From Cytophagaceae bacterium ABcell3 (GTDB taxonomy: Bacteria > Bacteroidota > Bacteroidia > Cytophagales > Cytophagaceae), in contig CP133159.1 of assembly GCA_030913385.1 (NCBI GenBank), forward strand, positions 640,584-704,583: 64,000 bases of DNA. The letters run 5' to 3'. Positions within the stretch are counted from its first letter, which is position 1, and each line of letters begins with the position of its first letter. Under the pieces are notes generated by a model, which was not told the DNA's origin, ran no database searches, and was given only the letters and a program-made list of their open reading frames with translations. Shown here piece after piece: positions 14,790-38,933 of this stretch. Position numbers and translations under genes: made by a program.

Positions 14790-14951
14790 GGTAAGATTAA
14801 ATTATTAGAAACTAAGAAACGCAAAATCAACGTAATTTAGTGAATTGTGTTGAAATAAAAATATTCCTAATAAAAAAATACTAATGTACCTAAAAAAGTA
14901 AGTGTGAAAAAGTAAAAAGTAGAGGTATCGCTTTATGGCCCCTCTACTTTT

Positions 14952-15122
14952 TAACCTGGATTATTCGTTAGATTTCGTTATGAGGGGCAAAATAACAAAA
15001 AATCAGCGTATTTGGTTTGCAAAGCATAGTGGTTCTATGGTTAAAAACCAAATGCGAGCGAAGCGTCTGATTTGGAGTTATTTTGCCACGCAATAGAAAG
15101 TTCTAATGCATGTTTCAGGTTT
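14952..15122 (+). repeat. MITE-like repeat copy A (about 170 bp, TTAA-flanked, CCTGGA...TTCAGG termini)
   Basis: About 90% identical to the reverse complement of 33284..33452. It abuts the stop codon of the DHS-like gene. Confidence 0.8.
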
Positions 15123-19873: not shown

Positions 19874-20422
19874 TTAACTTACATACTGTACTGTCTGTCT
19901 GATAGGAAATCTTTTGAAAATCTTATGAACGGTTTTAGAAATATTTCTTCCTGTAAACGTTCTGCTGTCTACTACATCTGAATAGGTGCCGCTCCAAACA
20001 ATTTTATTTGTTTTCTGGTCTATAGCATTGATAGTGATAGTCGCATGTTGATAATGTATAGGGTATGTGTGATAACCTGCGACTCCCCAATGAGGCCCCC
20101 AGCCCCAACCCCACCATGGAGACATTCCCCATATAGGTTGCATGCCTACGGTTCTTCTTTTGTTGACTTTTACCTTGAAGTCCAACAAAAGATCTGGATT
20201 TATGCTGTCGCCCCTAAATCCGCGGTTATGCATTTCCCTATTAGCGGCATGGTGTATGTTTCCGTGAAGTATCGAACGAGGTTCCCCGTCATCTTCATGT
20301 TTGATCCATGCGTAAGTACGATAGTTTGTAAAATCTGCTCCAGCAACTTTGTCGGAATAGATGTTTCTGTTACATGCTCCTAATATTGGGATCAGTAGCA
20401 GTAAAAAATATAGCTTTTTCAT
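19874..20422 (-). CDS. Trp-rich lipoprotein, hypothetical
   Basis: MKKLYFLLLLIPILGACN lipobox; contains WWGWGWGPHWG. Confidence 0.55.
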   Translation of the reverse strand: MKKLYFLLLLIPILGACNRNIYSDKVAGADFTNYRTYAWIKHEDDGEPRSILHGNIHHAANREMHNRGFRGDSINPDLLLDFKVKVNKRRTVGMQPIWGMSPWWGWGWGPHWGVAGYHTYPIHYQHATITINAIDQKTNKIVWSGTYSDVVDSRTFTGRNISKTVHKIFKRFPIRQTVQYVS

Positions 20423-20475: not shown

Positions 20476-20660
20476 CTTTAAGCGCATTAAAAATGCATTA
20501 AAATAAGCGGGTTTAGGGGTTTATGTTCTCTAGGGTATTACTTGTTGGTGAAAAACACCAACAAGGGGGGGGGCTTTATGCTCATTAAAAATGCATTAAA
20601 ATAAGTGGCCGGGGTTTATATTACTTGTTGGTGAAAAACACCAACAAGAGGGGGAGGGGA
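20476..20660 (+). repeat. Two tandem units of a palindromic-hairpin repeat (TTGTTGGTGAAAAACACCAACAA followed by a G-run)
   Basis: Units at 20476..20572 and 20581..20660 share ATTAAAAATGCATTAAAATAAG...TTACTTGTTGGTGAAAAACACCAACAAGRGGGGG. Confidence 0.8.
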
Positions 20661-20775
20661 AAGCGGGGTAAAAAAGAAGTGCCTACGCTGGGGCAAGTTT
20701 TTTTTTAATTGAAATAGCCTTGACATAAAGCATGTCAAGGCTGTGGGTTATGTTCTAAGAGATGATTGTTGTTGT

Positions 20776-21000
20776 TTAATCCCCCTTATTTATCTTCTTG
20801 TCAGAAACAGGGCCTGAACCATATTTATAATGATCACCTCCTCCTTTGTTCTTATTTTTGGCACCGGCTGCGTTTGACACATCTCCTGGGTTGCCAGCTT
20901 CTTCTCTATATTTTTTCTTTTTGACCATGTCTATTTTTTCCATGCCTGCTCCCGGTGCATGTGACGGACGGTTCTGGTTTTCTTTATTTTTAGTTCCCAT
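20776..21000 (-). CDS. Small Lys/Gly-rich hydrophilic protein (possibly a KGG-type stress protein)
   Basis: 74 aa, very basic and hydrophilic, with a GAKNKNKGGGDHYKYGSG segment. Confidence 0.3.
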   Translation of the reverse strand: MGTKNKENQNRPSHAPGAGMEKIDMVKKKKYREEAGNPGDVSNAAGAKNKNKGGGDHYKYGSGPVSDKKINKGD

Positions 21001-21140
21001 AATATATCGGTTTTTTAATCTTTATTTCATAAACATGAATTTTTTGTCTTATTGTTCATAGGCTGCTGTAGGTATGGTTAGGAGGTCGTTAAGAGAACGC
21101 AAAAGCTTCTCTTGTTGTTTTTATTTAAAAGCGGAAGACT

Positions 21141-21755
21141 ATGAAGGTGGATGAAAAGTTGAAAGAAGTTGTAGAAAGGGAAAGCCAGGTTTTACAGGGG
21201 GAAGAAGGGAGAAGCGCTATATATTATAGCAGGAAAGCCTTTGATTATGCAGAAGAGGCGGAAGAAGCCTATAGGCAAGCCGTTGATAAGTTATTTGATG
21301 TTAACGGTTGGAGTGATATAGGTGGACTTACTACGGCCAAATTTTCTTTGTATGACCCAGATGGTAAACCTACAGATCATTTAGAGCTAGGATGTTTTGT
21401 TAAAGTTGAACTGCCTGGCCCTTTTCCTGAAAACTGGGTTAGGGTAAATGAGGTTTACGAAGAGGATTTTGTCGCAGAGTTTAAAGTACACCCTTCGCAC
21501 AGTCCTCTAAATAAAGAGCATCAGGAAGTGGTAGATCATTTTTTTACGAGTGATGCAAGCAGTTCTTTTCGTGTTACATTGAAAGAGAAGCTACTTTCTG
21601 CCTATGAAATTGGAAGGGACGAATATATCAACAACCGTGACGAAGAGTCCGGAGACAGGAAAGTTACCAATACACTTATTTCTGAGGGTGGCTGGATGGC
21701 TTTCCAGAAAATTCAATGGCAGAGCTTAACGGATTATTTGGTAGGAGAATCTTAA
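21141..21755 (+). CDS. Hypothetical protein
   Basis: A 204-aa ORF followed by an intrinsic terminator. Confidence 0.45.
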   Translation: MKVDEKLKEVVERESQVLQGEEGRSAIYYSRKAFDYAEEAEEAYRQAVDKLFDVNGWSDIGGLTTAKFSLYDPDGKPTDHLELGCFVKVELPGPFPENWVRVNEVYEEDFVAEFKVHPSHSPLNKEHQEVVDHFFTSDASSSFRVTLKEKLLSAYEIGRDEYINNRDEESGDRKVTNTLISEGGWMAFQKIQWQSLTDYLVGES

Positions 21756-21783
21756 TAAAACCTTAAACTTGTGTAGCATGAGG

Positions 21784-21806
21784 AGGGGATTTCCCTCTTT
21801 TTTTAA
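21784..21806 (+). terminator. Rho-independent terminator
   Basis: GAGGGGATTTCCCTCTTTTTTT. Confidence 0.7.
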
Positions 21807-22082
21807 TGTGTTTTTGTGTAAAGAGTTGTTTACGCCAATAGAGGTTAATGGACACTTGCTTTTTGGCTTAGGGATAGAAGCGGCACCCCGCAGTCCCGAC
21901 GATAGGAGGGCGAGGAGTATAGCGGATAGCCCGACCGAAGGGAAGCCCCTAAATCTATTCTTTTTATAGTACTTTGGAGAATATTTGTCTTTAATTGCAG
22001 AAATATCCTACTGGGACTATTCTGTTAACAGAAAAACTCATAATTTTGAATATTAAATGCTATTCATCAAAACAAGATAAAA

Positions 22083-23576
22083 ATGGCCCGCTTCTTAAAT
22101 GATATTTCCAGAACGTTTAGCGAATATTTGTTGATACCTGGTTTGACCACAAAGGAATGTATTCCAGATAATGTGTCTCTGAAAACACCTGTAGTGAAGT
22201 ATAAGAAGGGAGAAGAACCTCCGATTCAGTTAAATATTCCATTTGTGTCGGCCATCATGCAATCGGTGTCTGATGACCAAATGGCCATTGCGCTAGCAAG
22301 GAACGGGGGGATGTCGTTTGTGTATGGCTCACAAACCATAGAGCGGCAGGCAGAAATGGTTAGGAGGGTCAAAAAGTTTAAGGCAGGATTTGTAATTAGT
22401 GATGCCAATTTGACCCCTGAGCATACACTAAAGGATGTGGTGGCGCTGAAAGCGAAAACCGGCTACTCTACGGTAGGTATTACGGAAGACGGATCCTCGC
22501 ATGGAAAGCTGCTGGGTATTGTTACGAGCAGAGACTATAGAGAGGGACGGGACAAGCCAGATAAGAAAATCAAAGATTTTATGACGCCTTTTTCACGTCT
22601 GGTTTACGGCAAGTTGGGTATGACGCTTCGTGAAGCAAATGACTTGATCTGGGATAATAAACTGAACAGTATACCTATTATTGATGATAAACAAAATTTA
22701 AGGTACTTGGTGTTCAGAAAGGACTATGAAAATCATAAAGAACACCCTCTTGAGCTTTCTGATAGCAATAAGAAACTGATGGTTGGTGCTGGTATCAATA
22801 CCAGAGATTATGAAGAAAGGGTTGCTGCTTTAATAGAGGCGGGAGCCGATGTGCTGTGTGTTGATTCTTCTGATGGGTTTTCGGAATATCAGAGTGAAAC
22901 CATAAAGTATATTAAAGAAAAATATGGCGAAGAGGTAAAGATAGGCGGTGGTAATGTAGTAGACAAAGAAGGTTTTCTTTATCTGGTAGAAGCTGGTGCG
23001 GATTTTATAAAAGTTGGTATCGGAGGGGGGTCCATATGTATTACAAGGGAACAAAAAGGTATTGGAAGAGGGCAGGCTACGGCTATTGTGGAAGTTGCTC
23101 AAGCAAGGGATGAGTATTTCAAGGAAACAGGTATCTATGTTCCACTTTGTAGTGATGGGGGTATTGTTCAGGACTACCACATGGTGCTTGCCCTTGCTAT
23201 GGGTGCTGATTTCTTAATGATGGGCCGCTATTTTGCGCGTTTTGACGAGAGCCCAACTAAAAAATTAAAAGTCGGTAATAATTATGTAAAAGAATACTGG
23301 GGTGAGGGATCGAACCGTGCCCGTAACTGGCAGCGCTATGATGCAGGGGGAAAAGAAGGTCTTAAATTTGAGGAGGGCGTGGATAGCTACGTACCTTACG
23401 CAGGTAAACTTAAAGATAACCTTGATATTACCTTAGGAAAAATTAAATCTACTATGTGCAGTTGCGGTGCTATCACAATTCCCGAACTGCAGGAAAAAGC
23501 AAAAATAACCTTAGTTTCGTCTACATCTATTATTGAAGGCGGGGCACATGATGTGATTTTGAAGGATAATATTTGA
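22083..23576 (+). CDS. IMP dehydrogenase family protein (IMPDH/GMPR fold with CBS pair)
   Basis: [13 protein letters not shown] catalytic-Cys loop, a CBS region and [24 protein letters not shown]. The N-terminus is divergent. Confidence 0.7.
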
Positions 23577-23740
23577 TAGAGTTTATTACTATAAGTGATT
23601 TAAAAGCCTCTGGAAGTATTCAGGGGCTTTTTTGTTACGATAAAAAATGCGGTGGAGTAACAATTTGATATTGCTTGCGGTATGGTGGAGAGTTTACTTT
23701 TCTTGTAAAGGTATTTTTTTGTAACAATTCATATAGCCAT

Positions 23741-24091
23741 ATGAAGCATTTAATAATTCTATTTTTTGTGTTTGTCCTAGTAAGCTGTAAGAAAGAAGGT
23801 GTAGTGGAAAGGGGCACTGGTGGCCATGCCGTTGTTTATGCAGGAGAAACATATCGTTATGCCACAGGAGTTGTAGGGGAAGGTGATGCTATGCGTATTG
23901 TAGAGCAGGCAGAGCATTATGAGATCAGTGAAGTTAGAATAGAGGACAATGAAGCCGTATATTATTATAAACCGGCTGCGGGATTTTCTGGCGAAGAGAA
24001 AATGGTGTTCGAAGTTATTAGATGGGAAGGCTCTACTAAGATCTATCACAGCTTTTTTATTACCATAGAAGTTAAAGAAGAGGAAGACTAA
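23741..24091 (+). CDS. Lipoprotein, hypothetical
   Basis: MKHLIILFFVFVLVSCKK lipobox; internal Met start of the ORF at 23675. Confidence 0.5.
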   Translation: MKHLIILFFVFVLVSCKKEGVVERGTGGHAVVYAGETYRYATGVVGEGDAMRIVEQAEHYEISEVRIEDNEAVYYYKPAAGFSGEEKMVFEVIRWEGSTKIYHSFFITIEVKEEED

Positions 24092-24228
24092 TGTATATGG
24101 TATATATGGCAATACTGGTTTACTAAAGTTGATTTTGTTTTGAGGCTTTATGTGATCTGGTTTATTGAAAATGTATTAGTAGTAGGTTCTATAAGCCTCT
24201 AGATTAATTCTGGGGCTTAAAAAAAGGC

Positions 24229-24264
24229 TTCTTTAGTATAAGAAGCCTTTTTTTGATAGGTAAA
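24229..24264. terminator. Bidirectional terminator
   Basis: AAAAAAAGGCTTCTTTAGTATAAGAAGCCTTTTTTTG, between convergent genes. Confidence 0.8.
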
Positions 24265-24285
24265 CTGTTGAAAAAATAAACCTTT

Positions 24286-24606
24286 TTACTCTTCCTGTTC
24301 GGCCATAAGCTTAAAGCGCATGCCGTTCAGTTCTGGAGATATGCGGATTTGACAGGACAGGCGGCTATCAGGACTTGCATCAGGCAAAGTGTCCAACATG
24401 TCCAGCTCCTCATCGCCAGGTTCTCCTAAGTCCCCTGCGCCCTGTGCCTCCACATGACAAGTGGCACACAAAGCCATGCCTCCGCAGGTGGCCAAAATAT
24501 TATATTCTGAGGCCTTTAATACTTCCATCAGGCTCAGGTTTATATCTTCTGGGACTTCTACATTCTGGACGTTTCCGTCTCTGTCTTCTACTTCAAAAGT
24601 GATCAT
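24286..24606 (-). CDS. 2Fe-2S ferredoxin (adrenodoxin type)
   Basis: CGGMALCATCHV cluster-binding motif plus a fourth Cys. Confidence 0.85.
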   Translation of the reverse strand: MITFEVEDRDGNVQNVEVPEDINLSLMEVLKASEYNILATCGGMALCATCHVEAQGAGDLGEPGDEELDMLDTLPDASPDSRLSCQIRISPELNGMRFKLMAEQEE

Positions 24607-24617
24607 ATTGCCTGGTT

Positions 24618-25622
24618 TTAGAATGTATTGACACCGTTTACTGTTGTGTATTTAAAACTCAGTTTTTTGTCAGGGTAAACAAATTTAAAGGCACTCTGAG
24701 CCATTAGAGCCGCCTCATGGAAACCACATAGGATCAATTTCAGTTTGCCCGGATAGGTGTTGATGTCACCAATGGCAAACACGCCAGGAATGTTGGTGCT
24801 ATAGTCAAAAGTGTCTACCTCAATGGCGCACTTGTCAATGTTCAGCCCCCAGTCGGCCATAGGGCCTAATTTAGGGCTTAAACCAAACAGCGGGATGAGG
24901 TGGTCTGCCTGCAATTCTTTTATCGCTTTGTCTTTGCCTACCACTGAAACAGAGCTCAAAACACCGTTACCGTCCAACGCTTTTAGGTTGCTGCTTAGCA
25001 GCAGGTCAATTTTTCCTGATTTTGCTAACTCAAATACTTTTTCAGCAGAGTCTGGTGCGCCACGGAAGGTTTCGTTTCTGTGAATAAGCGTTACTTTTTC
25101 TGCCACATCAGAAAGGAAAATTGTCCAGTCTAGTGCAGAGTCGCCGCCTCCTGCGATTACTAGCTTTTTGTTTCTGTACTGCTCCGGATCTTTAACCATG
25201 TACGAAACACCTTTGCCTTCAAACCTGTCCAAGTTTTCAATGGCTGGCTTTCTTGGTTCAAAGCACCCAAGCCCTGCGGCTATTACCACTACTTTTGTAT
25301 GGATAGTGGTATTGTCAGAAGTAGTTAGTATGAAGGAACCATCTTCTTGCTTTTCCAGCGCGTTTACCCTTTCTCCTAGGGTGAAAGTCGGTTTAAATGG
25401 TTCGATCTGTTTCATCAGATTGTCTACTAACTCCTGCGCCTTTACTTCTGGAAAACCAGGGATGTCGTAGATAGGCTTTTTAGGGTATATTTCAGAAAGC
25501 TGACCACCCACTTGTGGAAGGACATCTACCAAATGGCAGCGCATTTTCAGAAGCCCTGCTTCAAACACGGCAAATAAACCAACGGGGCCAGCCCCTATTA
25601 TGCATATATCTGTAGTTATCAT
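24618..25622 (-). CDS. Ferredoxin-NADP+ reductase, thioredoxin-reductase-like (YumC type)
   Basis: DICIIGAGPVGLFA...LPQVGGQLSEIYPKKPIYDIPGFP, and GGGDSALDW. Confidence 0.9.
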   Translation of the reverse strand: MITTDICIIGAGPVGLFAVFEAGLLKMRCHLVDVLPQVGGQLSEIYPKKPIYDIPGFPEVKAQELVDNLMKQIEPFKPTFTLGERVNALEKQEDGSFILTTSDNTTIHTKVVVIAAGLGCFEPRKPAIENLDRFEGKGVSYMVKDPEQYRNKKLVIAGGGDSALDWTIFLSDVAEKVTLIHRNETFRGAPDSAEKVFELAKSGKIDLLLSSNLKALDGNGVLSSVSVVGKDKAIKELQADHLIPLFGLSPKLGPMADWGLNIDKCAIEVDTFDYSTNIPGVFAIGDINTYPGKLKLILCGFHEAALMAQSAFKFVYPDKKLSFKYTTVNGVNTF

Positions 25623-25943
25623 TTTTTATAGGAGTTTGTTCTAAAAAAAGAAAGTGTTTAAAAATTGACGCTATACCTTAGGGTCTCAACATATAGAACA
25701 ACAACAATAGCCGAATAGATTCCTATACTCGTTAATGAATATACCTGCAGGGTAGCGGGATTTGAGGCTCCCTGCTTTTGTTAGTGGCAAATCTTTCATG
25801 TTCGGAATTTTGTTTTGTTGATGTGTAAATTTACAAATAATGTTTTGTATATGCAATAATATTCCACATTGTTCAAAATAAAATTTCGCCTATGAGGTTC
25901 CGGTGATTTTATTTGATCCATTTGTCTTGATTGGGCAATTTTT

Positions 25944-27545
25944 TTGGAGTGGTTTGGAAAAACTATTTGTGGGCGTTGCGGTTATGAAGTTATTGTCTTC
26001 GACAGGAATGAGGAAAAACAGATTTTTATGTATTCTGAAGAAAATTTTAAGCATTTTTTAGAATTTGGCCCTGATGCAATAATAATTATTGACGGTAGTG
26101 GTGAAATAGTATTGGTTAATCAACAAACTGAAAACCTTTTTCAGTACTCGAGAGAAGAGCTGCTTGGGCAAAAAATTGAAACCCTTATTCCCAAAAATGT
26201 CCATGAGAAACACGTAGAAGAGAGAAATGTATACATAAATAACCCAGTAATAAGGCCGATGGGACATCCTGGTCGTAATCTGGTCGGCAGGAAAAAAGAT
26301 GGCTCAGAGGTGAAGGTTGAAATTAGTTTGAGTCCAGTACATGTTAAGGGGGGCGCACTTTTTATAATTTCTACCATTCGGGATGTGTCTGAAAGGTTTA
26401 AGATGGAAAAAAAGCTGGTAGAAGCGCAAAATATGTTTGAAAAGATATTTGAATCTTCTCTTCATGGTATTATAAAACTTAAAAGTGTCCGTGATCAGGA
26501 TGGGAATATAGTTGATTTTACTTATCAGTTGGTTAATAAAGCCTCTGAAGCGCATATAAAGAGGAAAAGAGAAGATGTTTTAGGGAAGAAGATTGGTGAA
26601 CTCTTCCCTTTATTAAAAGAAAATGGGGTTTTTGATGCTTATGTTGAAACCGTTAAGACTGGTGTATCCCGCACTGTCGAGTTTTTGTATGATAAAAATG
26701 AAATCAATGCATGGTTTAAATCAAATATCATTAAAGAAGGTGATGGGGTTATTGCTTCATTTGATGATGTAACAGCAAGAAAGGAGTATCAGCAGAATCT
26801 TGAAAAAATAAACCATGAACTTGAGGAAAGGGTAAAAGATAGGACAAAGGAGCTTTCCAAAACGAACGAAAAACTTATTTATGTGAATCAAAAACTTGAC
26901 AAATATGCCTACCTTATTTCTCACGATCTAAAAGCTCCTTTAAGTAATATAGAAGGTTTGGCAAGTATGGTCAAAGCAGACTATCAAGGAAAAGCACTCG
27001 ACCAAGAAGGGGTAGAGATGCTAGGAATGATGGAAGCTAAGGTTCATGATATGAAAGACATTATAACTAACCTGCTTCAGGCGGCGAAGGATGAGATTAA
27101 GGACAAAGAGCTGGTAGACTTGTATCAAGAAGCGCAAAAGGCTGTACGGACGCTTGACCCTCCACCTCATTTCCATATTTTTATTCAGCATAACTTGCCT
27201 GTTGTAAAGTACCAGAAGAGTTCTATTGTTCAAATTTTTCAGAATCTTATTGGTAATTCTATAAAATACATGGACAAGAAGTCTCCTTTAATTACTGTCT
27301 CTTGTAAAGAAGCTGAAGCTTATTATATGATATGCGTGACTGATAATGGGTCAGGGATTCCCGAGGACAAACTTCCTAAAGTCTTTGAACTTTTTGAGAA
27401 AGCGCATGAAGGTCAGGTGAAGGATAGTCATGGTATTGGCCTGTCGATTGTAAAACAGCTTGTGGAGCAAAATGGGGGAGAAGTTTGGGTAGAAAGTGTT
27501 TATGGGAATGAAACAAAGTTTCATTTTTCAATTCCTAAAAGGTAG
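25944..27545 (+). CDS. PAS-domain sensor histidine kinase
   Basis: Two PAS-like regions, an H-box YAYLISHDLKAPLSNIEG, and an HATPase_c with DNGSGIP and GIGLSIV. Confidence 0.85.
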   Translation: MEWFGKTICGRCGYEVIVFDRNEEKQIFMYSEENFKHFLEFGPDAIIIIDGSGEIVLVNQQTENLFQYSREELLGQKIETLIPKNVHEKHVEERNVYINNPVIRPMGHPGRNLVGRKKDGSEVKVEISLSPVHVKGGALFIISTIRDVSERFKMEKKLVEAQNMFEKIFESSLHGIIKLKSVRDQDGNIVDFTYQLVNKASEAHIKRKREDVLGKKIGELFPLLKENGVFDAYVETVKTGVSRTVEFLYDKNEINAWFKSNIIKEGDGVIASFDDVTARKEYQQNLEKINHELEERVKDRTKELSKTNEKLIYVNQKLDKYAYLISHDLKAPLSNIEGLASMVKADYQGKALDQEGVEMLGMMEAKVHDMKDIITNLLQAAKDEIKDKELVDLYQEAQKAVRTLDPPPHFHIFIQHNLPVVKYQKSSIVQIFQNLIGNSIKYMDKKSPLITVSCKEAEAYYMICVTDNGSGIPEDKLPKVFELFEKAHEGQVKDSHGIGLSIVKQLVEQNGGEVWVESVYGNETKFHFSIPKR

Positions 27546-27554
27546 ATAAGGCTG

Positions 27555-27675
27555 GGTATGTTAACCTGAATAACTTCAAATCAGTCGCGTCTTTCACATT
27601 TTATCTTAACCATAGCGTTGCTATGCTTTGCGACCTCAAAGTGCTGACCTCTTGTTGTTTTGCTCCTAATGATGA
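27555..27675 (-). repeat. MITE-like repeat, degenerate copy D
   Basis: TTAACCTGAATAACTTCAAATCAGTCGCG...CATAGCGTTGCTATGCTTTGC aligns with copy B. Confidence 0.55.
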
Positions 27676-27745
27676 AATTTATCGGCACAACTTAGGCTAA
27701 AGGAATAAAAAAGGAGCCAGTGATTAGCTCCTTTATCTGCTTTGT

Positions 27746-28657
27746 CTACCCATGCTTGATCACCTTGTGATGGCGGTGCTTGTGCCCAGGTTCCCATATT
27801 ATACGGGTAAACATACTCATTCGTTCGTTTTCTCTGAAAGCAGGAATGCCAGCAACGATACCTATTAGGAAGTTGTCCGTAATTCCCAACCTCATTTGTG
27901 GCCTTATGGTCATATCAAAGTCGCCTGGTTGCCAAATCTTATTAAACTCTATACCAATAAAGTTTCTAGTTCCAGGCAACATATAATGTAAGTTCGTATT
28001 TACATGATAATGAGCATGTAGGTGCGGGTCGCCAAAGTGTTGATAGACCATTGGGCCTGTGTACACAAGCGTATGGTAATTCATGCCCCAACGTTTTGCT
28101 GCAATGAAAAACGGGTTATAAACATTGCCGGTGAGCAGTGGATTGCCAAACTCACGAAATGTGTTAAATTCGACCTCGTTAATATACCCTAAAGCCATTG
28201 AGGTCTTCCATTTTTCATTCACTAAAAAAGTCCATTGAACAGCCGTTTTAAGCCCGTTGATTTTGGACCCAGGGGCGTCACTTGCCCTTTGCCCGTTTTT
28301 GTATGAGCCGATAATGGTAAATGGCACTTCTATTTCAAAACCCACTCGGTCAAAAGGCGCCCATTCATATTCTACGAGTGCTTCATATTCGTCGTAAGAA
28401 ACATTATCTGTCATACCAAAGGCCACGTTCCATTCCTTTTCACCTTTGCGTGCGCCCAGGTCACGAATAAGGTCTATGTAAAGAGGCTCGGCATGCAGTA
28501 TTTTGGCCGGTTCTTTTCTTTCTTCTACTTCGTAAATGTATAGACTGTCTACTATTCTACTGTCCAAATAAACAGTATCGGATTGGGCTATAGCTGCTGC
28601 ACTGCATAAGCTTAGCAAAGTGCCTAGGATGCACTTTTTTACATTGTTGCCCCTCAT
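27746..28657 (-). CDS. Secreted / outer-membrane protein, hypothetical
   Basis: N-terminal signal peptide ending ...SAAAIAQS, with Gly/aromatic-rich beta-strand-like content. Confidence 0.45.
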   Translation of the reverse strand: MRGNNVKKCILGTLLSLCSAAAIAQSDTVYLDSRIVDSLYIYEVEERKEPAKILHAEPLYIDLIRDLGARKGEKEWNVAFGMTDNVSYDEYEALVEYEWAPFDRVGFEIEVPFTIIGSYKNGQRASDAPGSKINGLKTAVQWTFLVNEKWKTSMALGYINEVEFNTFREFGNPLLTGNVYNPFFIAAKRWGMNYHTLVYTGPMVYQHFGDPHLHAHYHVNTNLHYMLPGTRNFIGIEFNKIWQPGDFDMTIRPQMRLGITDNFLIGIVAGIPAFRENERMSMFTRIIWEPGHKHRHHKVIKHG

Positions 28658-29100
28658 TGTGTTGGTTGCGTATCTATGGTGCTATGGTTTGTTAAAAATA
28701 CTTTTTTGTAGTAAAGCAGAAAGCTTTTGGGCAAGGAGGCGACTGCCTTTGTATGCCCGCATATACGGTTTCATTTTATTTTGAGATGGTGTTTTTTTTA
28801 AATGCTAACGCCGTTGTTTGATAATTTTGTTAAGCTAGTAAATATTTATTTTTTTATTGAAATTGTATAGTTGGATAGACGGTTTTAATAGAATTTTAAT
28901 TTCTATACTTTGTTTATCGTCAGTGGATTGCAAGGAAGAGCGTTGCTGTTAATGAATGGCTACTTTTAGGATTAATATGGGGTAGTTGTTGCTATAGTTT
29001 TAAAAAAGTAGAGCCCGTTTATATACGGACTCCGATAACATGTTTTTATTAGTTTTATGCGTAAAGTTTGGCTAAAGAGCCCTCTCGTTACCTAGTGGAC

Positions 29101-29340
29101 TTATAGGTCATGGCCGCCTATGGCTATAATGCGTAAGTTTTCAGCTTCGTACCCTGTTTCACGAAATATTTTTATAATCACATCAGGAGTAATTTCTTCT
29201 CCTGATACACTAAGGATGTTTTCTTCACTTTCCAAATCGAGCTTCCACTTGCTTATCAACTCCTCTTTGTCTAGCGCTGTTGATACTTTTGCAAGGTCTT
29301 TTTCATTGTCTATATTGGTCTTGAATTTCAATATATTCAT
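29101..29340 (-). CDS. Small HMA-like domain protein lacking CxxC
   Basis: MNILKFKTNI...GYEA has the ferredoxin-like HMA pattern but no metal-binding cysteines. Confidence 0.3.
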   Translation of the reverse strand: MNILKFKTNIDNEKDLAKVSTALDKEELISKWKLDLESEENILSVSGEEITPDVIIKIFRETGYEAENLRIIAIGGHDL

Positions 29341-29404
29341 AGTGATTAGTCTTTTTATATTAACCCTTTGCGTGAGGCAAATGTTAACGTTATTGTGGTA
29401 TTAT

Positions 29405-29590
29405 TAACAGCCCCCACCCCACCTCTTGTTGGTGTTTTCACCAACAAACCTTCCCGCAAAGGCTGCACCCAACATTTTAGCTATGAAAAGATGGGCAGCA
29501 TATAAAGCCCGAGCAAAAAGAGGGGAATGATTTCTTGCATTTAAAGCCATTAACGCCAACGGTGCAGCCATATATAATATTCCATAACCT
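29405..29590 (-). repeat. Palindromic-hairpin repeat unit (reverse orientation)
   Basis: CCCCCACCCCACCTCTTGTTGGTGTTTTCACCAACAA..., about 80% identical to 29715..29905. Confidence 0.75.
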
Positions 29591-29714
29591 CATTGTATAC
29601 TGTGGCCTTTTTGCCTATCTATTGAGGTGTTTTTGTTCCGCCCCTATCGGGGCTAAATGCTGATTTCAGACTCTTTCTACCGATATTCCGTCCCTATCGG
29701 GACTGGTAAAAGTT

Positions 29715-29905
29715 GTTTAATTTCCCTCCTCCCTCTTGTTGGTGTTTTCACCAACAAACCATCCCGCCTAGGCAGCACCCAACATTTTAGCTAATTAAGA
29801 TGGGCAACATATTAAGCCGAGCAGCAAAAAAAGGAAACATTTTCTGTCATTTAAAATCAATTATAGCGCCAACGGTGCGCAATATATAACAATGGGCAAT
29901 AGACA
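29715..29905 (-). repeat. Palindromic-hairpin repeat unit (reverse orientation)
   Basis: CCCTCCTCCCTCTTGTTGGTGTTTTCACCAACAAACCATCCCGC... Confidence 0.75.
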
Positions 29906-30282
29906 ACAGCCTTTTTAAAACCCCGAAGGGGCGCAATAAGAAAACGGTACCTTATAGGTAAAAATGGGGATATTATTTTCTTTAAGAATTTTCTTGGCAA
30001 CACCTATTTTGTCTATAATTATATTGTCCCTAAAAGGGCATTTAAGCTCCACTCCCCCCTTCAAGTGGTTATCAACCCTTGGAGGGGTTGAAAAAAGTTT
30101 TTTAGCTCAAAAAAATATTTTCTATTCCTGTTAAATTTTTTGAACAAAAGGTTTTGGTTGCCGTATAAATCATCGCTCAAAAGTTCGATTTGCCTTGCGT
30201 TACAGTAGGTCAACAAATAAAAATCCTCGTTCTGTTTGCGCATATTTTGCTTTTTATTAATTTAGGGCTTCTTTATTTAGCG

Positions 30283-30918
30283 ATGTTAGAAATATTCTCA
30301 GAATCACTTAAACCGGTCAATTTGCCGGGTACATTTATACTCATAATCGTCCTCTGCTATTGGATTGTTAATTTTTTAGGACTTTTTGATCTCGAAATGT
30401 TTGATACTGGAGATATCGAATCAGGCAAAGGAGGTACAGATACCGGCTCTGGTGGAATGGTTTCATCTGCCGCTGAATTTTTTCATTTCGGAGATGCTCC
30501 TGTGACAATTGTCATCAGTTTTTTTGCCCTTTTCTTCTGGGCAGGCTCATTGCTGACAAACCATTACTTGCACAATGAATTTATGCTGATCGCACTTTTG
30601 GTATATGTGCCTAATATTATTGTCAGCCTTTTATTAACTAAAATTTTCGTCAAGCCTGTATCAAAGCTTTACAGTAAACTGAAAAGTCAAGAGGCGCAGG
30701 TGGTAGACTTTTCTGGATCTGTTTGTACCGTAATTATTGGTTCGTCAGAGGGGCGCATGGGGCAGGGAGAGATAAACGAAAACGGTAATAGCTTCAGGGT
30801 GAATATCAGGGCTACTGCTGGAAATTCCTTGTCTAGGGGCGATACAGCTTTGCTTATTGAGGTAGGAGAAAACGGGGTTTACTTGGCCGAACCTTATGTT
30901 GAAACAATGCAATCTTAA
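30283..30918 (+). CDS. NfeD-like membrane protein (YuaF-like)
   Basis: N-terminal TM helices and a C-terminal OB-fold-like domain (GSVCTVIIGSSEGRMGQGEINENGNSFRVNIRATAG...ALLIEVGENGVYLAEP). It sits immediately upstream of the flotillin gene. Confidence 0.65.
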   Translation: MLEIFSESLKPVNLPGTFILIIVLCYWIVNFLGLFDLEMFDTGDIESGKGGTDTGSGGMVSSAAEFFHFGDAPVTIVISFFALFFWAGSLLTNHYLHNEFMLIALLVYVPNIIVSLLLTKIFVKPVSKLYSKLKSQEAQVVDFSGSVCTVIIGSSEGRMGQGEINENGNSFRVNIRATAGNSLSRGDTALLIEVGENGVYLAEPYVETMQS

Positions 30919-30953
30919 AACCGCAACATATTTACTAATCAATTACTAAAGTT

Positions 30954-33047
30954 ATGTTTGAAAGTGTAATTCTAACCACCATACTGGCGGTGGTGTTTTT
31001 CTTTTTTATGGCAGTAGCACTTGCCGTAAAATGGTACCACAAAATGCCTCAGGGCAAAGCTATTGTCCGTACTGGGGCTGGTGGTACAAAGGTCAGCTTT
31101 ACGGCCATGTTCGTCATCCCTGTCCTTCATAAGAAGGAAATTATGGATGTTTCGTTGAAAATGCTGGAAATTGGCAGGATGGGCAAAGACGGCCTTATCT
31201 GTAAAGACAACATAAGGGCAGACATTAAAGTGGCCTTTTTTGTAAGGGTAAATAAGGCGGTGGAAGACGTTATTAAAGTAGCGCAAACCATTGGTTGTGA
31301 CAGGGCTTCGCACAGGGAAACGCTAATTGCAATTTTTGATGCTAAGTTTTCTGAGGCACTTAAAACTGTCGGAAGAAGGTTTGATTTTGTGGACCTTTAT
31401 TCTGACCGTGATAGGTTTAAGCAGGAAATACTTGATATCATAGGTACTGAACTTAACGGATATCATCTAGATGATTGCGCCATTGACTATTTGGAGCAGA
31501 CGTCTATGGAGTTCTTGAAAGCAGATAATGTTCTTGACTCTCGCGGTATCAAAAAAATTACAGAGATAACTGCTGAGCAGAAAGTGCTGGCAAACCAGAT
31601 TAAGAGGGACGAAGAGAAGGTTATTAAAAAGCAAGATGTAGAGGCACAGGAAGCTATTCTTGAACTTAACAGACAGCTGACTGAAAGTGAAGAAAGGCAA
31701 CAGCGTGAAATCTCTATCATAAAGTCTCGTGAAAGAGCAGAAGCTGATAAAGTACAGTCTGAAGAAAAGCAAAAATCTGAACTTGCAAGGATCAGGTCTG
31801 AAGAAGAAGTGGCCATTGCCGAGGAGAATAAGAAGAGACAGGTGATTGTGGCAGCTAAGAGCAAAGAAAGAACAGAGGCTATTGAGACCGAAAGGGTAGA
31901 GAAAGATAAGATGTTGGAAGCAACCGAAAGAGAAAAACTGGTGTCTCTAGCTCAGATAGAAAAAGACAAAACGCTGGAAGAAGAGAAGAAAAACATGCAG
32001 GATGTGATCCGCGAGCGTGTTATGCTTGAGAAGACAGTGGTAGAACAAGAAGAGAAAATTAAAGACACTAAAGCGCTTGCTGAAGCAACTAGGCAGAAAG
32101 AAGTTGCCCTTACACTTGCATTGACAGAGGCTGAGGAGCAGAAGTTGAAAGAGATCAAGCAAGCCGAAGCGCACAAGCTATCTGCTGAACTTAAGTCTCA
32201 GCAACAACTGATAGAAGCAGAAGCAGATCAGAAAGCTTCTGAGAAACAAGCTGAAGCTAGAAGACAATTGGCAGAAGCGACTATCGTGGAAGAATCAACT
32301 GCTGGAATGGCAGAAGTGAAAGTAATTGAGGCGAAAGCTAACGCTATTGAGAAACAAGGTGCTGCTGAAGCCAATATTATGGAAAAGAAAGCTTTGGCAG
32401 AAGCAAGGGGCATCGAAGCAAAAGCTACGGCAGAAGAGAAGAAGGGTATGGCAGAAGCAAGTGTGCTAAACAAGAAAATGGTGGCCGAAGCCAAAGGTAT
32501 CGAAGAGAAAGCAAGTGCTATGAAGAAGCTAGACGGTGTTGGCAAAGAGCACGAAGAATTCAGGCTTAACCTTGAAAAACAAAAAGAAATCGAATTGGCT
32601 CAGATCAGTATCAATAAGGATATTGCTGATGCTCAGGCTAAGGTTATCGGAGAGGCGCTTAGGGCTGCCAAAATTGATATCGTTGGTGGTGAGACTATGT
32701 TCTTTGACAAGATCATTGGCTCTATTACTTCTGGTAAATCTGTAGATTCATTTGTTCAAAACAGCATCGTTGCCGGAGATGTGAAGAAGGCATTGTTGGG
32801 CGATGGAAGTAAAGGAAATATCATTCAGAGGATCCAGGAGTTTATGACTTCCAATGCTATTTCCATAGAAGATGTGAAAAACCTGACTATTACCGCATTC
32901 TTCGGAAAGCTGATGGCTCAGACTGTTGACCCTGACTTTAAAGCTTCTCTGTCTGCCTTGCTCGGTGATGCGCAGAAAGCTGGACTGGCCAACAAAACAG
33001 TTTCATCTCTTGGGCTTAACGGAGCTTCTGTTGCCAAAGAAAACTAG
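30954..33047 (+). CDS. Flotillin-like SPFH/band-7 protein with long EA-rich coiled coil
   Basis: N-terminal TM, an SPFH domain (AIVRTGAGGTKVSFTAMFVIPVLHKKEIMDVSLKMLEI) and an extended Ala/Glu/Lys-repeat coiled coil, as in FloT/YqiK. Confidence 0.8.
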   Translation: MFESVILTTILAVVFFFFMAVALAVKWYHKMPQGKAIVRTGAGGTKVSFTAMFVIPVLHKKEIMDVSLKMLEIGRMGKDGLICKDNIRADIKVAFFVRVNKAVEDVIKVAQTIGCDRASHRETLIAIFDAKFSEALKTVGRRFDFVDLYSDRDRFKQEILDIIGTELNGYHLDDCAIDYLEQTSMEFLKADNVLDSRGIKKITEITAEQKVLANQIKRDEEKVIKKQDVEAQEAILELNRQLTESEERQQREISIIKSRERAEADKVQSEEKQKSELARIRSEEEVAIAEENKKRQVIVAAKSKERTEAIETERVEKDKMLEATEREKLVSLAQIEKDKTLEEEKKNMQDVIRERVMLEKTVVEQEEKIKDTKALAEATRQKEVALTLALTEAEEQKLKEIKQAEAHKLSAELKSQQQLIEAEADQKASEKQAEARRQLAEATIVEESTAGMAEVKVIEAKANAIEKQGAAEANIMEKKALAEARGIEAKATAEEKKGMAEASVLNKKMVAEAKGIEEKASAMKKLDGVGKEHEEFRLNLEKQKEIELAQISINKDIADAQAKVIGEALRAAKIDIVGGETMFFDKIIGSITSGKSVDSFVQNSIVAGDVKKALLGDGSKGNIIQRIQEFMTSNAISIEDVKNLTITAFFGKLMAQTVDPDFKASLSALLGDAQKAGLANKTVSSLGLNGASVAKEN

Positions 33048-33055
33048 TAGCTCTA

Positions 33056-33097
33056 ACCTGAAATACCTAATAGAAAGTTCTATTACGTATTTCAGGT
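33056..33097. repeat. 42-bp near-perfect palindrome built from MITE terminal sequence
   Basis: ACCTGAAATACCTAATAGAAA|GTTCTATTACGTATTTCAGGT has arms 19/21 complementary. The right arm matches the MITE 3' terminus AGAAAGTTCTAATGCATGTTTCAGGT. It lies 9 nt after the flotillin stop. Confidence 0.8.
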
Positions 33098-33283
33098 TTG
33101 CATAAAAAATTATTTGGTCCGAATGGTGCGATAAGCCTTACTATGGGGCAAAAACACAGTAATCCAGCGTATTATTGCGGTAATGCTGATGTTTTGATGT
33201 AAAAGCTTTTGTCATTGTAATAGCTTTATTGCTCCTTCCGGATCAAAGACACTCCGGGGCTTTTAGTGCCGGAGTGTATATTA

Positions 33284-33452
33284 ATCCTGAAATATGCATT
33301 AGAACTTTCTGTTTCGTGTCAAAATAACTTCAAATCAGACGCTTAGCTCGTATTTGGTTTTTAACCATAGAACCACTATGCTTTGCAAATAAAATACGCT
33401 GATTTTTTGTTCTTTTGCCCTCATAACGAAATCTAATACATATCCAGGTTAA
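33284..33452 (-). repeat. MITE-like repeat copy B (TTAA-flanked)
   Basis: Reverse complement about 90% identical to 14952..15122; TTAA at both borders. Confidence 0.85.
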
Positions 33453-33499
33453 TTGTCCCTGATCATAAATATTTTCCGGAATTAAACTTTCACCCTTCC

Positions 33500-36400
33500 A
33501 TGGCAGAAGATAAAAACCCTTCAGCAGAAGCAGAAAAGAACAATAACAATATAGACGCCGGAGCTTACCGGATCCTCAGAAACCGATTGGATACGGCTGC
33601 GAACGACTTGAAGTCAAGGCTTGGCAAGCTGAACGAAGAGCGGAAATCTGTTTTCGGTTCAGTCGAAAGCCGTATCATCGGAAATGAAAGAGTTACTACC
33701 GAAAACAACTGCGTTGCCCGCGACATGATTTCTGTGGGGCATCACTTGCTTTTTGGATATAATGTCCACTTGGGACTTAAATCTGAAATGGAGGTAAGCG
33801 ATGTTTTTAATGTGTATGAGTTTAATGACAATTCTTTTCATGATGCAGGGCTTGAACTGATCAATGATAGCACATTTGAAAGCGACTTCAGAGACCTTTA
33901 TAAATATTATAAAAATACCGTTTTTGAGAAGTTTGCTGTCATAGGACCTTTTCTGTACATGGTTTTTCGTGTAGGGAAAAATAAAGGGGACATAAAAACT
34001 TTTAAATGGCTTATTGCTGAAAATGCCTTTCAATACCAGGGCAACCGCAGCGATCATGAGTTTAAATTTCCTCCTCAGTTTGAGTTTGAATGGGTAAGGA
34101 CTACCAGGGACAGCCATAGGAGTGGAAAACATCCGCATGTTTCTGTGTTGGACAAGGTATTTATAGAAACGGTGGGTGGCGATTTGACTATTAAGGTTGA
34201 AGATAATACCGACAATGGCGAAGGTATTCTTTCCGAGCCAGTAGAGGATAGGGACCAGAAACTTGATGATGCTGAAATTTACTATGCTGATCTTGACAAC
34301 ATTATTCTTCTAAAAATTAAACCTTTTAGGGAAAAAGAATTCCGGTATATAGTATATAACCATAGAATCAAGCAGGCAAAAAGGATAGACGCTATAAAGG
34401 ATTCCTGCGTGCTGCTACCGGACAACCATGGTATTATATTTTCTAAGGGATACTATCTCCAGACAGGTGAATATAAGCTGTTCGAGAACGAAGTTCAGGG
34501 GCTTCTTTTCGAAAAAATGATAGCTTCTCCCAATGGAGAGGATTTTATGTATGTGTTTTATAGCATGGATTACGGCGCTTATATTATGCTGCCGTACAAC
34601 CTTATAAATCAGCATGTGGAAAACCTAATTGTATGTCACGGTTATTCATTTTTTCCTGATGGCGAGCTGATTTATTTTACAGACCAAAGCAATGCTACAA
34701 AACATCATACCATTCAAATATGGCAGACACCGTTTGTAAGCCCAGATTATGTTCCTCCTGTTCAGTCGGACTGTTACCTGTTCAAGATTGGCAATAAGGA
34801 TATTGTCCGCGCTATGGCGGAATGTACCGAGCTTCTCAACCTTTTGCAGAAAGATGATGAATCTTATGCAAACTTGTATTATGATATAGTTAAACTGGCG
34901 GGCGATATTACAGATTCTTATTTTTGGATCAGGGAAGAAGCGGCCTTTAATTTGGCAGCAGCTTTAACTGTTGTCCGAAATACTGCCTCCTCTGCTATCG
35001 ATGAATTTCAGAAAGTCCAGCGGATTAAGCAAAACACCCGACAACAGACAGAGAAATATGCTGTAGAGGTTAAAGAAGTGCTGCGGGTTATTAGTAGGGA
35101 ACGTTTTGAAGATATTGATGCATTTGTGGGGGTTCTGTCAAAAATTAGGGGGCTACGGGGAGAGGTTATTTCTTTGAAAGACCTGAGGTATGCCGATACT
35201 AAATTTATAGAAGGGCTGGAAAAAGAGCTGGAGAAAGAAGCTGAAAAGGTTTCTGAAAGGTGCGTACGGTTCTTGCTCGACGAATCATCGCTTACGCCTT
35301 ATCATACCAAGCTGGAAGAGCAGAAGGAAGGCATTGAAAAGGCCACTAGGGTTGCAGAGGTTTCTGAAAGGATTGAAGAACTTAATGATATTTCTGCCGG
35401 GTTGGAAATGCTTATAGATACCGTTTCTAACCTTAAAATTGAGGACGCCACAGAAACAACCCGTATTATTGACAATATTTCCCTTATTTTCTCAGACTTA
35501 AACCAACTCAAATCAAGGGCAGGAAATATTAGGTCTGGTTTTAGGAAAGGGGAAAGCACCGCAGAGTTTCATGCGCAAATACGCTTGGTTGAGCAGGCCA
35601 TCGTAAACTATCTTGATCTGTGCGACACACCCGAAAAATGCGAGGAATACCTTACCCGCTTAATGGTCCAGTTGGAAGAATTAGAAGCAAAGTTTTCTGA
35701 CTTTGATGAATTCATTACTAACATTACTGAAAAGCGGGAAGAAGTATACGAGGCATTTGAAAACCGGAAACTCAACATTGTTGAAGCCCGAAACAATAGG
35801 GCCAACACGTTAATGTCCTCTGCTGACCGGATTTTGAAAGGTATTCAGAACCGGGTGGCCCGTTTTGAGGATACCAAAGATATCAATGGTTACTTTGCCT
35901 CTGATATGATGATCGACAAAGTGCGAGATATCATAAAAGAGCTTCAGCAACTGAATGACTCTGTAAAAGCGGATGAACTTCAGGGTAAGCTGAAAAATTT
36001 AAGAGAAGAAGCCTTAAGGCAACTGCGGGATAAGCAGGATATTTTTGTGGCAGGGGCCAACTTGGTTAAGTTTGGAGATCATCATTTCTCTGTTAATACC
36101 CAAGCACTCGATTTAACCATTGTCAACCGTAACCAGGAATTGTTTTATCACTTAACCGGAACGGGCTTTTTTGAAAAAGTGGAAGATGAAAGACTGGCTG
36201 GTACCAGAGAAGTTTGGGAGCAAACCGTTGTTTCAGAGAATCAACAAGTTTATAGAGGAGAGTATCTTGCCTATAAAATCTATACAGACGCAGTGGCTGG
36301 AAGAGGGGAAAGTAAAGATCATTTATATATGCTGACCATTCCTGACCTACAGGCTTATGTGCAGCAGTATATGGCACCAAGATATGCAGAAGCGTATGTA

Positions 36401-38416: not shown

Positions 38417-38463
38417 TACTGATGTGTTAGGAGAGAGACTGAGGTGGTATCCTGTTCCGGTTA

Positions 38464-38883
38464 TTGTTTTTTATAAACTGGAACTATTTATTATATTCAG
38501 ATAGTCAGGAACAAAAAACACATTTGGACATGCCTATTAAAAGGTTTTTCAAAATATTGCAGGCCAACCTCAACCAAGGAAAGGAAGGGTATACCTACAT
38601 TCCTCCAGAGGAGCCTCCTAAGGAAAAGAGCTTTTATGAGCCCAAAACCGTGAGCAATGAAAATCCTGTGGATGTGAAGGAGGCGGGCTATTATTCCAAT
38701 CTTGAGTTGCCTTATGGAGCGGGATTTGATGAAATTAGGAAAAACTATAGGCGTTTAATGAAGCAATATCATCCTGACAAGTTTCATAATGATTCGGGAA
38801 GGAAAGCTTATGCAGAAGAGGTAAGCAGGTTGTTAATCGAGGCATACACTTATTTTGAGGATAAATTCTCAAAAAAAACTTGA
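38464..38883 (+). CDS. Small J-domain protein (DnaJ-like co-chaperone)
   Basis: C-terminal J-domain FDEIRKNYRRLMKQYHPDKF... The start may be the Met at 38531. Confidence 0.75.
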   Translation: MFFINWNYLLYSDSQEQKTHLDMPIKRFFKILQANLNQGKEGYTYIPPEEPPKEKSFYEPKTVSNENPVDVKEAGYYSNLELPYGAGFDEIRKNYRRLMKQYHPDKFHNDSGRKAYAEEVSRLLIEAYTYFEDKFSKKT

Positions 38884-38933
38884 TATTTTAAAGGAAAAGA
38901 GGAAATTTACTAAGTATTTAAATTTGAGCAAAT

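Follow-up and report, generated by a model that had tools for sequence, protein, structure and literature searches.

What are the short palindromes that recur at two intergenic loci in the chromosome of Cytophagaceae bacterium ABcell3, a cellulolytic haloalkaliphile from Siberian soda lakes that represents a new Cytophagales genus (PMC11700989)? The stretch of DNA analysed here (contig CP133159.1, positions 640,584 to 704,583; referred to throughout as the window) is 64 kb of the 5.1-Mb ABcell3 chromosome, and all copy counts for ABcell3 are within those 64 kb. An original prediction, made from the letters of the window, had described four copies of a palindrome with a flanking G/C tract, and had likened them to repetitive extragenic palindrome (REP) or bacterial interspersed mosaic element (BIME) sequences. 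Our analysis indicates that the window palindromes are very probably REP elements of a Bacteroidota lineage of REP-associated tyrosine transposases (RAYTs, small domesticated transposases), TnpA_REP subclass 2.6 or RAYT group 5. To our knowledge, REP and RAYT biology is known almost wholly from Proteobacteria. The REP unit has a stem of 9-10 bp built on the core GTTGG/CCAAC, a loop of 4-5 nt and a short one-sided foot.

The window contains four copies of one asymmetric hairpin

An exact pattern search of the window for TTGTTGGTG-N4/5-CACCAACAA confirmed the four predicted copies (20542-20564, 20625-20647, 29426-29447 and 29736-29757), and the same pattern gave no matches in 100 dinucleotide-preserving shuffles of the window. 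No further copies were gained in the window by allowing up to three mismatches. The copies, two near 20 kb and two near 29 kb, are as follows.

20541..20574, + strand: REP copy 1, CTTGTTGGTG-AAAAA-CACCAACAAG (20541-20565), then the run GGGGGGGGC
20624..20668, + strand: REP copy 2, hairpin (20624-20648) identical to that of copy 1, then the purine/G-rich sequence AGGGGGAGGGGAAAGCGGGG; GAGG foot
29411..29448, - strand: REP copy 3, on the + strand C-rich CCCCCACCCCACCTC, then TTGTTGGTG-TTTT-CACCAACAA
29724..29758, - strand: REP copy 4, on the + strand CCCTCCTCCCTC, then the hairpin as in copy 3

The perfect 9-bp stem first described holds for the 29-kb copies, which have a TTTT loop, whereas those at 20 kb combine a 10-bp stem (CTTGTTGGTG/CACCAACAAG) with a loop of AAAAA. 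The expected G/C-rich tract was present on one side of all four hairpins: GGGGGGGGGC and GAGGGGGAGGGG lie downstream of the first and second 20-kb hairpins respectively, and the tracts CCCCCACCCCACCTC and CCCTCCTCCCTC lie upstream of those at 29 kb. Because the TTTT loop and the preceding C-rich tracts mirror the 20-kb copies, the 29-kb copies are the same asymmetric element on the opposite strand, in the reverse orientation originally assigned to them. Read on the minus strand, copy 3 is an A-loop hairpin followed by GAGGTGGGGTGGGGG, with a 9-bp stem and T/G at the tenth position, and copy 4 is the hairpin followed by GAGGGAGGAGGG. The foot of copy 1 is G-GG(G6)C, which fits the family foot N'-GGC (see below) with a lengthened G homopolymer, and in copies 2-4 it is G-AGG, with G-rich sequence after it. 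By the published convention, in which the foot is 5' and the loop T-rich, copy 1 reads on the minus strand; on the T-loop strand, the foot of the window copies is CCTC or a C-run, compared with GCC-N in the family.

Predicted single-stranded DNA folds of the four hairpins had energies from -8.9 to -10.9 kcal/mol; relative to shuffles, their z-scores ran from -4.6 to -7.7 (copy 1, -10.9 kcal/mol, z -6.5). At 22-25 nt, with stems of 9-10 bp, these hairpins agree with the generic REP description of a 20-40-nt palindrome that forms a stem-loop, and both loci are intergenic, consistent with the extragenic placement of REPs.

Three other assignments were rejected. A terminator scan did not call the hairpins, which are followed by G-rich or C-rich tracts and have no T-run, and a promoter scan did not call them either; sigma-70-type promoter matches were present in the 29-kb spacer, with a model that is uninformative for Bacteroidota. 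A clustered regularly interspaced short palindromic repeat (CRISPR) array requires at least three identical repeats with a regular 55-75-nt period and unique spacers. Here there are two copies per locus without regular spacing, the sequences in the place of spacers are repeats too, and the search detected no array. The earlier view that these loci resemble neither a CRISPR nor a plain terminator was therefore upheld.

The hairpin is widespread in Bacteroidota and its stem covaries

We scanned a genome collection (one genome per species, 596 Gb) for the exact stem pattern and obtained at least 120 loci, treated as 8-kb blocks. The calculated chance expectation for 18 specified bases in 596 Gb is approximately 17 matches. 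The loci listed, to which the counts below refer, were nearly all from Bacteroidota (Cytophagales, Chitinophagales, Sphingobacteriales, Flavobacteriales, Saprospirales and Bacteroidales), with a few from metagenome-assembled genomes (MAGs) of Ignavibacteriota/Chlorobiota, a strongly non-random distribution. The taxonomic labels of MAGs may err, and one 'Bifidobacterium' and one 'Neomarinimicrobiota' contig are probably misbinned or chance matches; locus L124 is a duplicate of L112 and was not counted as independent. Several genomes among the matches listed, Rufibacter sediminis and Chryseolinea serpens being two of them, were represented by 3-5 separate 8-kb blocks. A viral contig collection gave only five motif matches, and a phage origin was rejected on this basis. 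A literature search on the two half-sites returned primer-type coincidences only.

When copies were oriented by loop composition, they gave the asymmetric consensus N-TTGTTGGTG-A(A/C/T)AA or AAGAA-CACCAACAA-N'-GGC-R, which on the opposite strand reads 5'-GCC-N-(stem, T-rich loop, stem)-N'. Among 105 copies whose loop is 4 nt long, the G, G and C of the foot were present in 91, 96 and 79; among 62 with a loop of 5 nt the counts were 58, 61 and 53, so that each foot base was kept in 75-98% of copies, with a mildly purine-rich tract beyond. The closing pair N/N' was Watson-Crick in 133 of 167 copies, and all four pair types were used. A search with only GTTGG..CCAAC fixed identified 56 distinct non-canonical hairpins, with outer stems such as ATG/CAT, CTG/CAG, TAG/CTA, TCG/CGA, GAG/CTC and GTC/GAC. 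In 37 of these, 95.1% of cells paired, with double changes at all five free pairs (50 cells), a pairing score reached by none of 500 shuffles. Since the stem positions covary, the conserved unit is the base-paired hairpin, and not protein half-sites or a peptide. The folded hairpin is under selection.

The window-type GAGG foot was also found elsewhere, in 26 metagenome contigs in a metagenome scan, many of them with hairpin-GAGG(C/A/G). In L151, a GAGG-foot copy lies 22 nt past a RAYT remnant that is itself truncated by a REP-like insertion, and C-rich or G-rich tracts beside the foot were also present in L015, L089, L114 and L118. As both GAGG feet and G/C-rich tracts recur in this way, the foot variant of the window lies inside the range of the family.

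With genes in the fetched loci called as crude open reading frames (ORFs), 133 copies were intergenic and 28 were within ORFs. Intergenic copies favoured gene 3' ends, with 50 in convergent and 13 in divergent regions. This distribution, together with the covariation, bears on two further explanations. The palindrome could be the double-stranded operator of a dimeric transcription factor conserved across Bacteroidota, as a perfect 9-bp inverted repeat with a short spacer and phylum-wide sequence conservation resembles CIRCE-type operators, and a divergent promoter region holds two of the window copies. We consider this very improbable. A spacer of either 4 or 5 nt would rotate the half-sites relative to each other, and the compensatory stem changes and lack of base preference at the closing pair point to base-pairing and not to half-site readout. 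The motif is also asymmetric, with a one-sided foot and a purine-rich loop, it occurs in tandem arrays and at convergent gene ends in preference to divergent promoters, and its recurrent neighbour is a RAYT gene, with no recurrent regulator gene nearby in the loci listed.

The second explanation, that these sequences encode small peptides, we regard as scarcely credible. The candidates are the minus-strand ORF 29404-29571, which encodes 55 aa and covers copy 3, and the motif itself read as xVGENTNKG or LLVKNTNKG. The 3' half of the hairpin and its foot do read N-T-N-K/N-G in one frame for a 4- or a 5-nt loop, and some copies lie inside long ORFs, as in L103. However, the ORF is lost in the second long repeat at 29 kb, where there are stops in every relevant frame, loop length varies by one nucleotide, the covariation tracks base-pairing and not codons, and most copies are intergenic. 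The stops and the 1-nt loop variation led us to reject the coding reading.

The hairpin family brackets RAYT genes

ORFs of the 120 motif loci were clustered to find recurrent neighbours. The most widespread cluster near the motif was a protein of approximately 170 aa with VIMPNH(I/L)HL and YIHxNP motifs. Its members matched the NCBIfam model NF047646, 'REP-associated tyrosine transposase', with E-values between 1e-17 and 4e-23, and one of them scored over the curated cutoff. They also matched Pfam Y1_Tnp weakly, and the sole match among solved structures was E. coli TnpA_REP (4ER8, E 2e-5). A RAYT gene was present in 16 of the 120 listed 8-kb loci, which is far above expectation for a gene present once or twice per genome. 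Six aligned hairpin-flanked RAYTs (170-191 aa) had NH[IL]H in five cases and THFH in one, and a Y motif YIHxNP in which x was N, Y, T, D, Q or E. The hairpin-flanked RAYTs were 45-57% identical to each other, and one was only 23% identical to the reference.

The hairpins stood in a consistent arrangement around these genes. Across all RAYT loci, in 15 of 16 cases the closest hairpin downstream carried an A-rich loop and had its GGC on the side away from the gene, typically 15-40 nt past the stop codon. In 10 of 14, the closest hairpin upstream was the inverted T-loop form, again with its GCC on the far side, typically 20-50 nt ahead of the start. A RAYT bracketed by inverted hairpins is the defining REPtron layout, and it is present in these related genomes.

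The association also held when the search began from the protein. A profile built from the six RAYTs identified at least 7763 relatives, many of them named by their source as 'REP element-mobilizing transposase RayT'. Protein-first loci from three genomes that were not in the motif-first set, Mucilaginibacter sp. X4EP1, Pontibacter sp. MBLB2868 and Rufibacter glacialis, had the hairpin on both sides of the RAYT in all three cases. The X4EP1 hairpins carried the compensatory stem variant GGAG/CTCC. In this genome (L121, CP183229.1), paralogous RAYTs at 299-826 and 3001-3528, 2.2 kb apart, were both bracketed by the stem variant TTGTTGGAG/CTCCAACAA, with up to three tandem copies downstream of each. 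L121 is an example of local REPtron duplication. Two other loci had hairpins within RAYT coding sequence: a REP copy overlaps the 3' end of the RAYT ORF at L043 4657-4687, and a hairpin variant takes the place of the N-terminus of the RAYT gene at L151 698-1080.

These proteins resemble a published group. TnpA_REP subclass 2.6, which corresponds to RAYT group 5 of Bertels and is mostly found in Bacteroidetes (Quentin et al. 2018, PMC6006769; BMC Genomics 19:475), comprises proteins of approximately 179 aa with the HuH motif NH[LIV]H and the Y motif YIH[QN]NP (PMC6006769). The hairpin-flanked RAYTs, at approximately 170-175 aa with NH[LIV]H and YIHxNP motifs, are as listed for this subclass. 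Supplementary Table S1 of the same paper (PMC6006769) gives GCCGTTGTTGGTGTTATCACCAACAACC for the subclass 2.6 RAYT AEI49282.1 of Runella slithyformis. The likely assignment to subclass 2.6 rather than 2.4 is based on these protein motifs and the Runella entry.

A less likely explanation: an RNA-level role

Copies of the hairpin might instead act at the RNA level, as 3'-end stabilisers, terminators or processing sites of mRNAs, or as parts of small RNAs, in which case the 96/81-nt units and ~186/191-nt repeats described below would be small-RNA genes; the link to RAYTs would be secondary. In favour of this, copies in the loci listed are concentrated around the 3' ends of genes, in convergent and tandem intergenic regions, and a terminator-like weak stem with a T9 run is located at 20680-20695 (+), directly after the 20-kb pair. 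Some blocks outside the hairpin are identical in both long repeats at 29 kb, and such roles have been ascribed to REPs (PMC3733652 and PMC8266576). We nevertheless consider this explanation unlikely, although such a role may exist as a secondary function. No T-run follows the window hairpins, orientation relative to flanking tandem genes was mixed (41 against 29 in the loci listed), sequence outside the hairpin is genome-specific, and the bracketing of RAYTs by inverted copies is left unexplained. Rfam searches found nothing relevant at the gathering threshold in the whole window, or at E<=1 in both loci, where the sole match was a chance-level one to STnc370 outside the hairpins. The original prediction had named a known noncoding RNA family as one outcome that would overturn it, and the hairpins themselves had no Rfam match even at E<=1.

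Both window loci are direct repeats

Each window pair is part of a larger repeat.

20476..20654, + strand: tandem pair, units 20476-20571 (96 nt) and 20574-20654 (81 nt), each a flank plus REP
29405..29905, no strand assigned: long direct repeats, 29405-29590 and 29715-29905 (~186/191 nt), REP at the start of each
29638-29653 and 29688-29703, + strand: two mini-hairpins, CCGCCCCTATCGGGGC and CCGTCCCTATCGGGAC, in the spacer between the long repeats

The 20-kb pair had been described as a tandem array of ~95 bp at 20476-20660. The pair is real, but its period is 98/83 nt and not uniform. Over ungapped columns the units share 92.6% identity, with a single 15-nt indel, and their flank contains the small palindrome GCATTAAAAATGC. 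On one side of them is the start of a DUF4136 gene (19874-20422, -), and on the other a 74-aa ORF (20776-21000, -) ends. Just beyond the stop of this minus-strand ORF there is also a perfect 11-bp hairpin at 20716-20742, AGCCTTGACAT-AAAGC-ATGTCAAGGCT.

The direct repeats of ~185 bp reported at 29 kb were borne out, with 84.7% identity over ungapped columns and 23 gap columns; a 29-nt block that includes the hairpin, CCTCTTGTTGGTGTTTTCACCAACAAACC, is identical in both. They occupy an 850-bp divergent spacer from ORF 29101-29340 (-) to ORF 30190-30918 (+). The non-REP part of these ~186/191-nt repeats had no counterpart in the other genomes compared. The paired mini-hairpins noted in the spacer are present, as GCCCC-TATC-GGGGC and GTCCC-TATC-GGGAC, 50 nt apart and differing by one compensatory change from C-G to T-A. 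They are the sole two in the window, are unrelated to the REP stem and are not members of the REP family.

Direct pairs were common in other genomes. Of 41 close pairs in the loci listed (<=600 nt), 24 were direct and 17 inverted, with direct-pair periods of 184-185 nt in L015, 178 in L051, 114 in L103 and 95 in L151; a long unit of 355 nt was present in L026. Inverted doublets 35-75 nt apart also occurred, for example in L017, L074, L080, L116 and L120. The flanks of duplicated units were unrelated between genomes, with nothing in common beyond hairpin and foot, and the long units (the ~186/191-nt repeats of the window, L015, L051 and L026) are therefore read as local, genome-specific duplications and not as conserved genes. 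At L103 141-391, three 114-nt (38-codon) repeats with a hairpin in each extend an ABC-ATPase ORF in frame. Four Rufibacter/Pontibacter loci (L005, L006, L020 and L033) have a second, related bulged hairpin, CTTGCTGTGTG-TTTT-CACCAGCAAG, approximately 30-50 nt upstream of the canonical one, which suggests that the two form a two-hairpin composite unit in Hymenobacteraceae.

Proposed mechanism and strength of the assignment

By analogy with E. coli TnpA_REP, the hairpin would fold when the DNA is single-stranded, for example at the replication fork. An HUH/Y1 enzyme, here presumably a RAYT of this lineage, would bind the stem-loop and foot, then cut and rejoin nearby, and cleavage and rejoining of this kind could spread copies into intergenic DNA. 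The two window loci would then most likely have been enlarged by local duplication of flank plus REP, giving rise to the 96/81-nt tandem pair and the ~186/191-nt direct repeats. The elements may be active in ABcell3, and may have a host-level role such as transcript stabilisation. We rate current activity in ABcell3 as much less probable than membership of the family, because the foot is non-consensus and the genome was seen only across 64 kb.

Several points weigh against assigning the window copies to a RAYT-linked REP family. The four copies represent only two independent loci, both of which have direct pairs and no inverted doublets (REPINs), the presumed mobile unit in Proteobacteria. Their foot deviates from the family consensus GGC, and if the enzyme requires the foot, the window copies could be decayed. 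The invariance of the stem in the 120 motif-first loci is by construction, as the pattern searched for held the stem constant. The mechanism is modelled on the enzymes of E. coli, Stenotrophomonas and Marinomonas and not on subclass 2.6 (PMC8266576), and copy number and RAYT content in ABcell3 were seen for 64 kb of 5.1 Mb. A search for an associated RAYT had been proposed at the outset; RAYTs bracketed by the hairpin were found in other Bacteroidota genomes, but tblastn with 13 RAYT ORFs found no homologue in the 64-kb window (best E 0.11), and none of the best 120 of at least 7763 RAYT profile matches was from ABcell3.

Other features of the window

An intergenic repeat of approximately 100 nt, TTWAACCTGGATTAT...GTATTTGGTTTGCAAAGCATAGTGGTTCTATGGTTAAAAAC, is present at 14950-15048 and 49760-49858 with 91% identity, and similarity falls sharply on both sides of it. 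This may be the first repeat family of the original prediction, in which the hairpin family is called the second. Downstream of the 29-kb repeats, a same-strand block at 30190-39659 (+) encodes 242- and 697-aa proteins without a Pfam match, a 1638-aa protein with DUF3686, DUF7902 and AAA ATPase domains, and then PspA/IM30. The first three proteins of this block had no PADLOC match, and a defence-system reading of these neighbouring genes was rejected on that basis. A complete IS66-family transposase ORF is located at 40500-41954 (-) (DDE_Tnp_IS66, E 3e-89). At 44033-44108 (+), an Rfam match to the group II intron catalytic domain (66.5 bits, E 7e-11) lies just upstream of an ORF for a YhcG/DUF1016 PDDEXK nuclease (44222-45271).

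A conserved stem and its implications

The identical 9-bp stem was found in at least six Bacteroidota orders and in Ignavibacteriota/Chlorobiota, despite divergent RAYTs. Proteobacterial REPs, in contrast, differ between genera. The family also often expands as direct tandem arrays of flank plus REP and not as inverted REPIN doublets. We tentatively suggest, as a possibility that is much less probable than the family assignment itself, that the partnership between this RAYT lineage and its hairpin is unusually frozen. The enzyme could recognise the sequence of the stem directly and use a different route to amplify copies, or the hairpin and its purine-rich foot could have gained a conserved host function, for example as the binding site of a phylum-wide factor. 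If this deep conservation of the stem is true, the family would be a useful contrast to fast-evolving REPINs, which serve as models of within-genome replicators.

For annotation, the ABcell3 loci are to be treated as REP-type repeats, and not as CRISPRs, terminators or small-RNA genes. The consensus provides a concrete search model for subclass 2.6, consisting of a GCC-N foot, a GTTGG/CCAAC core, a 4-5-nt loop, compensatory variants and a purine-rich tract, together with a bracket geometry in which one hairpin precedes the RAYT by 20-50 nt and another follows it by 15-40 nt. The same model supplies a defined substrate for biochemical tests.

Comparison with known systems

The GTAG- and CGTC-tagged repeats are, like the present family, short tagged palindromic repeats, and CGTC-tagged repeats were reported in Bacteroidetes and Chlorobi (Di Nocera et al. 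2013, BMC Genomics 14:522). The tag of the present family is neither GTAG nor CGTC. IS200/IS605 insertion sequences share with it a related HUH/Y1 enzyme, as the weak Pfam Y1_Tnp match indicates, and the use of single-stranded DNA hairpins as recognition elements. However, an IS200/IS605 element has two dissimilar ends that share a strand, and it recurs as a complete unit in multiple identical copies, whereas the hairpins that flank RAYTs here are inverted copies of one motif and most copies are solo, without a gene.

The REPs and BIMEs of E. coli are likewise short palindromes outside genes that bear a conserved motif at one foot, and inverted copies of them bracket a single HUH/Y1 gene of the same enzyme family. 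E. coli REPs have a 5' GTAG, a bulged imperfect stem and hundreds of copies, and form BIME mosaics of alternating orientation; the window REPs, in contrast, have a perfect stem, a GCC foot or a variant of it, and direct pairs. The canonical GT[AG]G foot is absent both from the family (GCC-N) and from the window copies (CCTC or CCCC), and the BIME layout of alternating REPs with defined linkers was not seen in the window, where both pairs are direct. The original comparison with REP/BIME elements thus stands for REPs, given a hairpin family that brackets RAYTs and the Runella entry in Table S1, and is not borne out for BIMEs. In vitro, TnpA_REP processes folded single-stranded REPs and needs both the hairpin and an adjacent conserved motif, according to Corneloup et al. 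2021 (PMC8266576; NAR 49:6982).

Pseudomonas REPINs, which are associated with group 2/3 RAYTs, are likewise RAYT-linked, intergenic and hairpin-forming, and inverted doublets do occur for the present family elsewhere. The window copies differ from them in being direct, as are 24 of the 41 close pairs listed, and REPIN sequences vary between genera whereas the present stem recurs across classes. For group 5 RAYTs, flanking 16-mers were reported to occur approximately 31 times per replicon (Bertels et al. 2017, PMC5581495).

The closest known system is the subclass 2.6 REPtron of Runella. Its REP, GCCGTTGTTGGTGTTATCACCAACAACC, agrees with window copies 3 and 4 in the stem TTGTTGGTG/CACCAACAA, in having a T-rich loop of 4 nt and in the side on which the foot lies. 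The host phylum is shared with the window, and neither hairpin has a GT[AG]G tetranucleotide, in keeping with the 'atypical secondary structures' without GT[AG]G that were described by manual inspection of subclass 2.6 flanks (PMC6006769). In contrast to the Runella REP, the foot of the window copies is CCTC or a C-run rather than GCC-N. Two of these copies have a 5-nt loop, and they all lie in direct duplicated units with no RAYT within 64 kb. Other subclass 2.6 genes in Table S1 of PMC6006769 are listed with unrelated REPs. Quentin et al. 2018 lists the sequence for one genome, and the wide taxonomic spread and covariation are not described there. The breadth of the stem, an explicit consensus with compensatory variants and the frequency of direct arrays, as seen in a pattern-selected sample of the matches listed, are not described in the papers cited here. 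The element type itself is already known, with its exact sequence in a 2018 supplementary table, and the ABcell3 copies are new members of it.

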